Shown here: piece after piece, positions 8,100 to 12,510 of the stretch
Numbering within the stretch: the first letter of the stretch is position 1
Layout of the letters: each line of letters begins with the position of its first letter
Origin: Aquificales bacterium
Lineage (GTDB): Bacteria > Aquificota > Aquificia > Aquificales > Aquificaceae
Length of the DNA stretch: 24,000 bases
Direction of reading: 5' to 3'
NCBI GenBank assembly: GCA_027037055.1
Contig: JALWBR010000018.1
Span: forward strand, 13,923 to 37,922
Translations under genes and position numbers: made by a program
Notes under the pieces: generated by a model
Told to the model about the DNA's origin: nothing
What the model saw: only the letters and a program-made list of their open reading frames with translations
Databases searched by the model: none

Positions 8100-8183
8100 A
8101 TGGGTACTTTTGTGTTTAATGTCTTCAAAAATCTTTCCAGGGAGGACAGAAAATGGCAAAGACCCTCGGACTGCATATCTTAG
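8100..8183 (+). CDS. Candidate 27-codon upstream/leader ORF (MGTFVFNVFKNLSREDRKWQRPSDCIS) overlapping the speH start out of frame
   Basis: AAGGAGGTGA (8083-8092) has the longest run of complementarity to a canonical anti-SD that I noticed in the window, and lies 7 nt before ATG 8100. The ORF ends at TAG 8181-8183, 28 nt inside speH. There is no homology evidence. Confidence 0.3.
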   Translation: MGTFVFNVFKNLSREDRKWQRPSDCIS

Positions 8184-8548
8184 CGGACATTTACGGTGTT
8201 GACCCCGCCCGCATTGATAGGGTGGAGGATATAAAAGATCTATTGGAGACAGCGGTCAAAGTTGCGGATCTTACAAAAATTTCCTCCCATTATTATCAAT
8301 TCCAACCTCACGGGGCAACGGGAGTTGTCCTCTTGGCGGAATCCCACATATCTATTCACACATGGCCAGAACACGGCATAGCAACAGTTGATGTTTACAC
8401 ATGCGGTGATCCCTCAAAGGCTTACAGAGCAATGGATTACATAATAAGCACCCTTGAACCTACAAGGGTTGATAAACAGATACATGAAAGGGGGCTTATG
8501 TTTAAAGACATGAATACCCCAGTAAATGTTTTAATGGAATCAAAATGA
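8153..8548 (+). CDS. speH: S-adenosylmethionine decarboxylase proenzyme, small SpeH type (pyruvoyl enzyme)
   Basis: 131 aa with LLAESHISIHTWPEHG, the self-cleavage (Glu-Ser) and HTWPE signature of class 1 AdoMetDC. GGGAGGA Shine-Dalgarno upstream. Confidence 0.9.
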   Translation: MAKTLGLHILADIYGVDPARIDRVEDIKDLLETAVKVADLTKISSHYYQFQPHGATGVVLLAESHISIHTWPEHGIATVDVYTCGDPSKAYRAMDYIISTLEPTRVDKQIHERGLMFKDMNTPVNVLMESK

Positions 8549-8763
8549 AGGTACGAATACTTATAATGCCCAAAGAGGGTCTTCTTGATCCTCAAGGCAG
8601 GGCGGTGATGGAATTACTGACATCAAAAGGTTACAACATAGAAAGTGCAAAAGTAGGAAAGGTCATAGAGATGGAAGTTGATGATTCCGTTGATATAGAA
8701 GAGATAGCAAAAAAATATCTGGTCAATCCCCTCATAGAAAGCTATAAAGTGGAAAAGGAATGA
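8545..8763 (+). CDS. purS: Phosphoribosylformylglycinamidine synthase subunit PurS
   Basis: 72 aa. KEGLLDPQGRAV...NPLIESYKVE matches the PurS pattern. ATGA overlap on both sides (speH and purQ). Confidence 0.85.
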   Translation: MKVRILIMPKEGLLDPQGRAVMELLTSKGYNIESAKVGKVIEMEVDDSVDIEEIAKKYLVNPLIESYKVEKE

Positions 8764-9440
8764 AATTCGGTGTTTGTGTATTTCCTGGTTCAAACTGCGA
8801 TTATGATACATACTATGTCATAAGGGATGTTCTTGAGAGGGATGTAAGATTTATTTATCACAATGAAACAAATATAAAGGACATAGATATTCTCATCCTT
8901 CCTGGGGGCTTCTCCTTTGGAGATTATGTAAGACCGGGTCTTCTTGCTTCTAAGACCGCTTTGATGGATGCGGTTATAGATTTTGCCCATAAAGGGGGTA
9001 TAGTGCTCGGTATATGTAACGGTTTCCAAATTTTAACAGAAGCGGGATTGCTTCCCGGAGCATTGCTCCCTAATGTAAACGGCAGGTTCATTTGCAAGGA
9101 TGTATATCTACGAATAGAAACAAAGTCAAGGATACTAACAAATAAATTAAAAAGAGGAGATGTATTAAGATTGCCCATAGCCCATCACGACGGCAGATAC
9201 TATGTTGATGATAAAACCCTAAAAGATATGGAAGAAAACGATCAGATAATATTCAGATATGCGGACAAGGAAGGAAACACGGATAACGGATCAAATCCCA
9301 ACGGTTCCGTCTCAAACATAGCGGGTATATGTAACAAAGAGGGAAATGTGTTTGGAATGATGCCCCATCCAGAAAGGGCATCCGAGGATGTTCTCGGAAA
9401 TCATGACGGACTCATGCTGTGGTATTCTCTTATTAGTTAA
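8760..9440 (+). CDS. purQ: Phosphoribosylformylglycinamidine synthase glutaminase subunit PurQ
   Basis: FPGSNCDYD, GGFSFGDY, nucleophile elbow GICNGFQ, and MPHPER. Confidence 0.93.
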   Translation: MKFGVCVFPGSNCDYDTYYVIRDVLERDVRFIYHNETNIKDIDILILPGGFSFGDYVRPGLLASKTALMDAVIDFAHKGGIVLGICNGFQILTEAGLLPGALLPNVNGRFICKDVYLRIETKSRILTNKLKRGDVLRLPIAHHDGRYYVDDKTLKDMEENDQIIFRYADKEGNTDNGSNPNGSVSNIAGICNKEGNVFGMMPHPERASEDVLGNHDGLMLWYSLIS

Positions 9441-10531
9441 TGGTTGAAGAATTCAAAGAAGCGGTTCAAAGAAGGAAGGCGAGGGTTGAAAGTTTTTTAA
9501 AGTGGGAATACCTCAGATTTTCCGATGATTTCAAAGATATTCCGAGGGGTACGGTCCTCTTCGGGAATGCAATTATATGGGGATATCCCCACATAGGTAG
9601 AATATTCAGGCTTGATAAGGGACTTAAAGAGCAATTTGAACATCCATTCTTTATTGAAGAAAAGGTGGACGGCTACAATGTAAGAATATTTGAACACGAC
9701 GGTGATATTGTAGCCCTTACGAGGGGAGGATATATATGCCCCTTTACCATAGACAGGATCCCTGAATTTTTAGACCTTCGTATTTTTGAAGAAAATCCGG
9801 ATATTATTATCTGCGGGGAAGTGGCGGGACCGGGTAATCCCTATATAGAAGAGAGTCCTCCCTTCATTAAGGAAGATGTACAGTTCTTCGTTTTTGACAT
9901 TATGAGTAAAAACAAAAGGGAGTTTTTGCCCTACACAAAGAAATTGGAGCTGATTAATAGGTATAACCTTCCCGCCGTTAAAACATACGGCAGATTTACA
10001 TCAGAGGATATACAAAAAATAAAAGAAATTCTCTTTAAGATGAATGAAGAAGGCAGAGAAGGTGTTGTTTTTAAAGAAGACTCGGAAAGGAACAAAAGGG
10101 TGAAATATGTAACAAGCAATGCAAACCTAAGCGATATAAGGGTAACGGCAAAAAACATGCTACAGCTACCCCCCGAATACTTTACGAACAGACTGCTCAG
10201 GCTCGTTCTTTTTATGGAAGAAGAGGGTATTGAAAAGACGGAAAAGTTATATAAAGATCTGGGTAAAGCCTTCATAGACGGACTATTTGACGCAATAGAA
10301 CAGTACAAAAAGGAACACAGAGTAAGCAGGAAGTTTTTATGTAAATTCAATAAAAAGGAAAATGCCCTCGCACTCATTGAACAGCTCAGCAGTGCTTCCA
10401 GACACATTCAGGTAATTCAAAATCGCTTGGAAAAAGAAGGAGATTATTACATACTTGAGTTTGAAAAGGTGTATCTGAACATGACGGGTTTCTTAGGACA
10501 TATACTAAGTGGCGGTCTTGTGTTTGATTAG
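9440..10531 (+). CDS. ATP-dependent RNA ligase, archaeal Pab1020 (Rnl3-like) family
   Basis: Nucleotidyltransferase motif [11 protein letters not shown] (KxDGxN), motif III FFVFDI, motif IV EGVVFK, motif V RVKYVT. The size (363 aa) fits the homodimeric Pab1020 type. TAATG overlap with the purQ stop. Confidence 0.85.
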
Positions 10532-11095
10532 GCTCTCAAGGACAACCCTTAAATTCTTAGGATTCATTATTTTGATACCCACCTTGTCCGCCCATTTTCT
10601 CAAACCCTCATCCCCCGAAATAAGAACACCGTCAAGCTCATAAGCGAGCAAAAGAACATCCACATCCTCTTTACTGTCAATAATACCCTGCCTTAAGGCT
10701 TCCCTGTACTTTTCCCTCAATCTTGCAATAAGTTTTCCCACATTCTCCTCATCAAGTTTTCCCGCCTCCTTCGTATGCTCCTCCGCTATTCTTAAACCCT
10801 TGTTTATCCTGTATCTTATTTCATCTATAAACTCATAAAGGATCTCACTCGGTATCATGAGCTGATACCTTCTCGGAGACCTTATTCTGACCACCATCTC
10901 AAACTCGGGTACGAGAACCTCCGAACCGAGAATGTGCTGAAGCTCTTCATAAACAGAAGAAGGCATAAAGAATTCCGCTCCCGAATGCATAGCAAGGTGT
11001 ATAAAGGTTTCCACAGCACCGTCGGGAGAGGATTCAAACTGACCGTATATATCTGGATTTGTAAAAACGCTTGTATCAAGGACGAACCTATCCAT
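10505..11095 (-). CDS. PIN-domain metallonuclease of the 'RNA ligase partner' / HARP (Aq_880-like RNA-free RNase P) type
   Basis: 196 aa. PIN acidic residues in [21 protein letters not shown] and LISGDEGL. Size and architecture fit the roughly 23-kDa PIN_5 proteins found beside Pab1020 ligases in archaea and Aquifex. The family assignment is from memory and is not searched. Confidence 0.75.
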
Positions 11096-11102
11096 GAATT
11101 TT

Positions 11103-11110
11103 ATTATAAT
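11103..11110. promoter_or_regulatory. Palindromic ATTATAAT giving a consensus -10 box on both strands between the PIN gene and the oxidoreductase gene
   Basis: Plus strand: TATAAT (11105-11110), 8 nt, then ATG 11119. Minus strand: TATAAT (11108-11103), 7 nt, then ATG 11095. The whole intergenic region is 23 bp. Confidence 0.45.
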
Positions 11111-11118
11111 CTTTACCC

Positions 11119-12510
11119 ATGCGTGTGGTAATAGTGGGGAACGGTCCTGCCTCAGCTTCCGCTATAGAATCTTTCAGAGAAATAGATAAGGATTCGGAAA
11201 TAGTAGTCTTATCCGATGAAGAATTCCCTACCTATGCACCAAACTGTATGGAAAATGTGATAAGGAACGATATACAGGATAATGCACTTTTTTACAAAGG
11301 AGGGTTTGAGTTTTACGAAAGATACAAGGTTGATTTCAGACCAAAAAAGGAAGTAAAGGCGGTTGATACAAAAAGAAAGGTTGTTATAACTTCCGACGGG
11401 GATGAGATAGAGTATGATAAGTGCCTCTTAGCCGCAGGTGCTGACTCTTTTATACCTCCTATACAAGGTATTGAACTCGGCGGTGTAACAACCGCAAAGA
11501 ATCTGTACGATGCTTTAAAGATAAGAGAATGGATAAAAAGTGGAAAGATAAAAGATATAGTCATAGTAGGAGCGGGACCCATAGGTATTGAAGATGCGGA
11601 GACCCTCAAACATCTCGGATTTAATGTAACGGTAGTTGAAATATTTAACAGAGTCTTACCGAGAATGCTTGATAAGGACATGGCGGATATATACATGAAG
11701 TATCTGGAAGATCTGGGAATAAGATTCCTCCTTGAGCATCAGGTTACATCCATAGAAGGAAACAACTGGGTTGAGGGAGTAAGGGTAAAACCCATTCAAA
11801 GAGACAGGGAGATTTTCATAAAAGCGGACATGGTCATACTTTCTGTCGGCGTAAGACCCCGTACAAGGCTCGTTGAAAATACTGATATAAAAATACACAC
11901 GGATGAAAAGACGGGTAAACCGATGGGGGGAATATTAACCGATGAGTATCAAAGGACATCAAACCCCGATGTATATGCAGCGGGGGATATATGCTCATCA
12001 GTAGATGTCTTCGGTAATCACAGGTGGATAGCTTTATTCCCTGCAGCCCAGCAGGAAGGATATATTGCGGGGTACAATATGGCAGGATTGAGGGTAAAAA
12101 ATGAAGGAAGCGTTGATTACAATGCGGTAAAAACGAGAGAGGTTACAGCCGGTAGCGGAGGCATTTTCGGAGAGGATAAAGAAATTCTAAAGGTTGAATA
12201 TGATAATTATTTGATAAAAATATTCCTCAGCGAGGGTAGGATAACAGGTTATCAGTTTGTGGGTATACCCGCAAGTGAAGATATTAACAAGACAAATACC
12301 CTTCTCTATTCTCTTGTAAGGGAAGATTGGAAAAATACAGTAATATCAAGAAAGGGTATGGGACTGGAATCCTCGGGAGTGCTTATGCACAACTTCATAA
12401 GGAATAATAGAGTAGTAAACGAAACACATATAGATATAATAATGAAGGGAATACTAAGAGCCTTGGGAAGTACCGCCTTGGATACCCCCCTCTTCCGCAG
12501 AACTCTCTGA
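11119..12510 (+). CDS. FAD-dependent pyridine nucleotide-disulfide oxidoreductase (NADH oxidase / CoA-disulfide reductase-like)
   Basis: Rossmann motifs [13 protein letters not shown] (FAD) and [15 protein letters not shown] (NAD(P)H), YAAGDIC near the C-terminal FAD contact, and a single candidate redox Cys in YAPNCMENV. Confidence 0.85.

Follow-up and report, generated by a model that had tools for sequence, protein, structure and literature searches.

The window, by which we mean the whole 24,000-nucleotide stretch of DNA analyzed here, comes from an uncultured marine member of the Aquificales whose genome is a 1.67-Mb, 54-contig draft, 99.96% complete by marker genes. The ORF listing of the window places a 196-aa open reading frame with an ATG start on the minus strand (10505..11095), where it converges on a ligase gene and overlaps it by 27 bp at the 3′ ends, as an earlier note on this DNA had described. 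The features of the locus are as follows:

9440..10531, plus strand: rnl gene, predicted to encode a Pab1020-type (Rnl3) RNA ligase, ATP-dependent and 363 aa long; converges on harp
10505..11095, minus strand: harp gene, whose 196-aa, 22.5-kDa product is a metallonuclease of the PIN_5 type and orthologous to Aq_880, the RNA-free RNase P of Aquifex aeolicus
10505..10531, both strands: 27-bp dual-coding overlap, in which the ligase ends in GGLVFD-stop (+) and the HARP in LIKHKTAT-stop (-)
11103..11131, minus strand: promoter-like site TTACCA-17-TATAAT with 10/12 matches; 3 such sites occur in 4.7 kb

On the ligase side, a speH-purS-purQ-rnl chain (8153-10531) is closely packed, with start and stop codons overlapping at 8545-8548, at 8760-8763 and, as TAATG, at 9438-9442. 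The purS-purQ-ligase linkage is a clade-specific context, kept in 14 related Aquificaceae loci and absent from other ligase-bearing loci. On the other side, a divergent 463-aa pyridine-nucleotide-disulfide-oxidoreductase-like gene starts at 11119 (+), 23 bp from the harp start at 11095 (-), and an oxidoreductase is kept upstream of HARP in just 2 related loci. The -10 element TATAAT of the promoter-like site ends 7 nt upstream of the ATG of harp, and its TTACCA falls inside the divergent oxidoreductase coding sequence; this promoter, predicted by consensus match only, suggests that the harp mRNA may be leaderless or near-leaderless.

Family identity and conserved residues of the HARP

The family match of the window protein lies far beyond chance (PIN_5, E = 3.9e-67; PDB, E about 1e-88). 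The PIN_5 profile (PF08745) aligns over positions 1-205 of its 205 at 226.1 bits against a cut-off of 27, and the NCBIfam models TIGR03875, "RNA ligase partner protein", and NF003344, an equivalog, score 229.2 bits (cut-off 95.3) and 313.2 bits (cut-off 241), respectively, the former showing that the 'RNA ligase partner, MJ_0950 family', suspected in the earlier note to be the HARP family, is indeed that family. Other PIN families in Pfam (PIN_12, PIN-TPR-GreABC) give partial matches below their cut-offs, and the profile searches do not move the protein into a VapC toxin-like PIN family. A search of the PDB returns 7 distinct matching chains, every one named "RNA-free ribonuclease P", of which the best four (8ssf/8ssg, 8kda, 7f3e and 8kd9) align end to end at E values of 1e-88 to 2e-87, with no gap to 8ssf and one 2-residue indel to 7f3e/8kd9. 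The computed mass of 22.5 kDa agrees with the roughly 23 kDa of Aq_880, a likeness in size that had been remarked on at first reading, and the host genome holds a single PIN_5 gene. By tblastn, loci 98-100% identical to the window HARP are titled "Aquificales bacterium" MAGs and those at 70-77% Aquificaceae, Aquifex or Hydrogenobacter, including MAG loci titled Aquifex aeolicus at 71-74%. The HARP Pfam family is printed as PF09745 in PMC12153264, probably through a typographical slip, the matching family here being PF08745.

Cryo-EM and mutagenesis of the Aquifex and Hydrogenobacter enzymes (AaHARP/HtHARP) published in 2025 assign the AaHARP active site to D7, T8, S9, D138, S139, E141, D142 and D160 and its main RNA contacts to R94, R102, R109, R125, R129 and R133, and describe an inserted spike or protruding-helix domain whose basic residues bind the tRNA elbow and the cleavage site (PMC12217051). 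In our alignment, where the window numbering equals that of AaHARP plus 2 past the 2-residue insertion, the active-site residues are kept at 8/8 positions (D7, T8, S9, D140, S141, E143, D144 and D162), as are five of the six tRNA-contact arginines (R94, R102, R127, R131 and R135), the sixth being a lysine, K109, which is also found in the 8ssf chain. The acidic clusters from which the protein had been picked out as a PIN nuclease could all be located, namely VLDTSVF (D7/T8/S9), KEDVDV (E143/D144) and ISGDEGL (D162), and the spike domain region aligns, by sequence, without gaps except for a 2-residue loop indel. With full-length PIN_5 and PDB matches and the catalytic residues kept, the candidate HARP of the earlier note is, at the level of its alignments, a clear HARP orthologue that carries every sequence-level hallmark of a catalytically competent HARP. 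The protein is the orthologue of a well-characterized enzyme in a clade where such an enzyme is expected.

Whereas the sequence identity and the residues of the window HARP are observed directly, its oligomerization and catalysis would follow by homology (PMC12217051, PMC10941002). HARP monomers would pair via the inserted two-helix spike bundle, and these dimers would stack to form a ring with as many as twelve subunits; the PDB entries 7f3e, 8kda and 8kd9 comprise 12 chains each, and the full-length alignment to chains solved as oligomers indicates that the window HARP should oligomerize, up to a dodecamer. Assembly into a tetramer or larger is a requirement for HARP activity. Recognition of the tRNA elbow would fall to R94, R102, K109, R127, R131 and R135 of one dimer, and an adjacent dimer would cut the -1/+1 bond using two Mg2+ ions together with D7, D140, E143, D144, D162 and S141, so that the 5′ leader of the pre-tRNA would be removed without an RNA subunit; AaHARP is in addition able to trim long 3′ trailers with vacant active sites. 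Four recombinant bacterial HARPs, none of them from Aquificaceae, oligomerize yet fail on pre-tRNA (PMC12153264), and homology alone is therefore no guarantee that the window HARP is active.

RNase P complement of the host and its order

Searches of the host genome gave no match to rnpB of type A, type B or the archaeal type (RF00010, RF00011, RF00373), nor to rnpA (PF00825), and the same searches do match in control genomes; PRORP (PF16953) and type-T RNase P RNA (RF02357) matched neither the host nor any control genome. With gathering thresholds applied, no Rfam family matched anywhere in the window either. As RNA genes may be absent from a draft assembly, we surveyed 60 further genomes of the order, making 61 with the host, which fall into the window's own family (f1, probably Aquificaceae to judge by the record titles above), a second family (f2) and a sister family (f3):

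f1, other genomes: HARP 26/26, rnpB 0/26, rnpA 0/26
f2: HARP 7/8, rnpB 0/8, rnpA 0/8
f3: HARP 0/26, rnpB 25/26, rnpA 26/26

In this set of 61 genomes, no family has both HARP and rnpA/rnpB, and ten genomes within the f1 sample are single-contig. The earlier suggestion that the host may lack RNase P RNA is thereby strengthened: neither rnpB nor rnpA was found in the host, nor in the 34 other genomes of f1 and f2. Since these sampled relatives are all without rnpA and rnpB, HARP is most likely the sole and essential RNase P, its essentiality being our inference and the absence of rnpA/rnpB matches from the genome an observation. The literature names HARP as the one RNase P that A. aeolicus and other Aquificaceae possess; it is probably of archaeal origin there, with rnpA/rnpB lost afterwards (the 2024 review PMC10941002; PMC12153264).

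One could argue that HARP is a mere back-up, as in Haloferax and Methanosarcina, and that the real RNase P RNA is unassembled or too divergent for Rfam. The 54-contig state of the host assembly, from which at least one tRNA (Tyr) was not found, would be compatible with such a gap, and the housekeeping RNase P of archaea is the RNP form (PMC12153264). We nevertheless consider a back-up role very improbable: rnpB and rnpA are both missing from 26/26 other genomes of the family, ten of which consist of one contig, the same searches detect rnpB/rnpA in 25-26/26 genomes of the sister family, and the protein gene rnpA is missing too, a loss that RNA-assembly problems would not explain.

The tRNA genes of the host bear on the assignment in both directions. 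ARAGORN finds 37 of them in the draft assembly, with tRNA-Tyr not found, and several are just 6-7 nt apart (C6, C19, C45); 37 tRNA genes needing 5′ processing, some closely spaced, count for HARP as the host RNase P. In 23/37, 3′-CCA is encoded directly after the discriminator base, as compared with about one fifth of the tRNA genes in Hydrogenobacter thermophilus, and the Hydrogenobacter HARP is roughly 10-fold slower on CCA-bearing pre-tRNAs (PMC12153264); given this reported slower cleavage in vitro, CCA in most host tRNA genes counts against HARP as RNase P.

The classification of HARPs within the VapC-like structural PIN group (PMC10941002) also invites a different assignment, in which a VapC-like PIN toxin is paired with the ligase as its antitoxin, or as an RNA-repair counterpart, in a toxin-antitoxin or defense module. 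The toxin-antitoxin idea has been raised in print (PMC12153264), and a faint PADLOC match to PDC-M11A (18 bits) exists, albeit with no stretch passing alone. The genomic evidence argues otherwise: a small upstream antitoxin gene is absent, the neighbors being the 363-aa ligase and the divergent 463-aa oxidoreductase; the ligase has no PADLOC match; other PIN families stay below their cut-offs; and the gene is single-copy in the host and present in 26/26 sampled genomes of the family, ligase-less ones included, which fits a housekeeping gene rather than a mobile toxin-antitoxin module. With an 18-bit partial match for the one protein, none for the other and no antitoxin-like neighbor, we reject the toxin-antitoxin/defense reading, which appears extremely improbable.

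We thus conclude with high confidence that the window ORF would be the RNase P of its host, most likely the sole and essential one, and that together with the convergent Rnl3 gene it represents the published HARP-Rnl3 cassette. That RNase P is a ribozyme is a rule to which the protein-only enzyme of Aquificaceae forms a textbook-level exception. That one more uncultured lineage follows this exception matters for annotation rather than for the concept.

The HARP-ligase pair and its convergent 3′ overlap

The neighboring gene, taken at first reading for a Pab1020-type ligase, proves on its profile matches to be an Rnl3-type ligase: TIGR01209 matches it full-length at 417 bits (cut-off 136.9), the RNA_ligase domain (PF09414) and the Pab1020 C-terminal dimerization domain Lig_C (PF18330) score 93 and 96 bits, and the KxDG adenylation motif is present as KVDG at K75. 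The pairing of HARP with such a ligase is already published, with hypotheses as to its function: Seshadri and Gopalan, who mined over a million genomes, report Rnl3 in 89% of HARP-positive genomes and co-location, "typically bidirectional", in 80% of the bacterial genomes positive for both (mBio 2025, PMC12153264). As to function, they suggest that harsh habitats may select for the two genes independently, that the two may be a toxin and its antitoxin, a possibility the authors themselves consider unlikely, or that they may be coupled in the maturation and circularization of C/D-box RNAs or in the processing of 5′-adenylated pre-tRNAs (PMC12153264). The earlier note held the pairing to have no explained function; candidate explanations have been put forward in print.

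Of 80 related loci, 50 have the ligase inside the sequence fetched around HARP, and all 50 co-located ligases are convergent with HARP, counts that come from related and thus not independent genomes whose record titles nevertheless span several phyla. The coding 3′ ends overlap in 40/50 and are spaced by 3-327 bp in the other 10. An overlap of 27 or 30 bp is found in 21 related loci, namely 20 of the window's marine Aquificaceae clade and one titled Tectomicrobia, and an overlap of 4 bp characterizes a clade with, among others, Hydrogenobacter and Pampinifervens in its record titles. Planctomycetota, WOR-3 and Nitrospirae are among the further record titles with the pair. Of individual loci, L048:3001-4638 (titled Candidatus Tectomicrobia) and L050, L052 and L054 (Gammaproteobacteria) encode HARPs 57-64% identical to that of the window next to a convergent ligase, and L048 carries the same 27-bp overlap. 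In L050:3001-3717 and L056:3001-3702 the HARP frame stops only after some 150 bp of the ligase gene; a genuine long C-terminal extension, loss of the stop codon or faulty assembly could account for this.

Within the overlap, a 15-nt block is invariant or near-invariant in an alignment of 12 loci because it is dual-coding, specifying the LVFD-stop end of the ligase, which lies within the family profile, and LIKHK of the HARP on the opposite strand. A conserved RNA structure or a bidirectional terminator at the 3′ ends was considered and rejected: four 121-nt segments folded at the junction show no RNA structure beyond that of shuffles (z-scores of -0.55 to +0.87), and no terminator-like site was found between harp and the ligase gene. 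With no such site between the genes, the convergent transcripts would be expected to overlap.

As the flanks change and the pair stays, the conserved unit is the HARP-ligase pair itself. Ranked by identity to the window, HARP and ligase moreover follow one and the same order, from Aquificaceae through Tectomicrobia and Gammaproteobacteria to Planctomycetota, and these sequences suggest that the pair may have moved between phyla as one cassette. The association is also dissolved in places. The ligase is unlinked to HARP in about 7/24 ligase-positive f1 genomes, and it is altogether missing from genus g7 of the same order (G035, G043 and G051; HARP 3/3, ligase 0/3) and from family f2 (genus g9; HARP 7/8, ligase 0/8), both of which are also without rnpA/rnpB; in these two groups, HARP would therefore serve as the only RNase P without a ligase, and they provide natural 'ligase-minus' controls for HARP-ligase hypotheses. 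The g7 HARPs are more divergent (E about 1e-54 compared with about 1e-67 elsewhere).

Why the two genes should be neighbors at all leads to a further reading, namely that HARP, besides acting as RNase P, cuts a structured RNA that the ligase seals or circularizes, with the convergent overlap coupling their expression via antisense. RNase P leaves 5′-phosphate and 3′-OH ends, which by established chemistry are those that an ATP-dependent RNA ligase needs, and HARP would thus deliver what Rnl3 requires. The co-occurrence and co-location of the two families (PMC12153264), the convergence of 50/50 co-located ligases, 40 with overlapping coding 3′ ends, and the persistence of the pair though both flanks change, including in non-Aquificota records, are all in keeping with such a second role. 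We regard it as rather unlikely, however, considering the HARPs without ligase in g7 and f2, the unlinked ligases in f1, the non-independence of counts drawn from related genomes and the lack of conserved RNA structure at the junction. In addition, a Thermococcus kodakarensis ligase knockout shows no growth defect (PMC12153264). Nor do C/D-box RNAs offer ready substrates: no match to fibrillarin (PF01269) was found in the host genome, whereas archaeal control genomes do match, so that the published C/D-box idea is inapplicable to the host as written and any substrate shared by HARP and ligase must be something else.

At its most specific, and as a speculation that we hold to be quite improbable, HARP and Rnl3 might form a cut-and-seal module in bacteria without C/D-box RNAs, acting on an unnamed class of structured RNA, with the convergent overlap balancing their expression. 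HARP would make the 5′-phosphate end, the ligase would join or circularize the product, and the strictly convergent, 3′-overlapping layout, kept in several phyla, would link the two genes in their expression by way of antisense transcription. The gene layout is observed here, and a functional link of the window HARP to its ligase would be inferred from it. In our preferred reading, with HARP as the host RNase P, the locus and its relatives sharpen the question of why a HARP and an RNA-circularizing ligase travel together, through the conservation of the pair alone, the dispensability of the ligase, the limit on the C/D-box idea and the CCA-bearing tRNAs.

Comparison with known systems

The closest characterized relatives of the window protein are Aquifex aeolicus Aq_880 (AaHARP; 7F3E, 8KD9) and the HARPs of 8SSF/8SSG/8KDA, with which it compares in length (196 versus about 191-194 aa) and has in common all catalytic residues and, for AaHARP and the 8SSF-type HARP, the RNA-contact basic residues. 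Both the window HARP and AaHARP belong to hosts in a clade without rnpA/rnpB. The window HARP differs from AaHARP in coming from another species, of an uncultured Aquificales MAG lineage, in having K109 where AaHARP has R109, and in its C-terminal tail, KHKTAT, which runs 27 bp into the ligase gene. With VapC toxins it shares the PIN-like metallonuclease fold class and four or five active-site acidic residues (PMC10941002), but HARP carries a spike-helix insertion and lacks a small antitoxin gene of its own, is single-copy and family-wide, and would by homology act in tRNA maturation rather than in RNA destruction. VapBC-type modules are marked by a small antitoxin gene directly upstream within one operon and by a patchy, often multicopy distribution.

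The ligase shares with Pyrococcus abyssi Pab1020 (Rnl3) the nucleotidyltransferase domain, the Pab1020-type C-terminal domain, the KxDG motif and the TIGR01209 match, and differs in being bacterial and the last gene of the speH-purS-purQ-rnl chain. Finally, the locus reproduces the HARP-Rnl3 pairing of PMC12153264 with the same two families (TIGR03875 and TIGR01209), adjacent and in the same 'bidirectional' arrangement, to which the present analysis adds the exact geometry: convergent in 50/50 loci, overlapping in 40, and with clade-specific overlaps of 27/30 or 4 bp.
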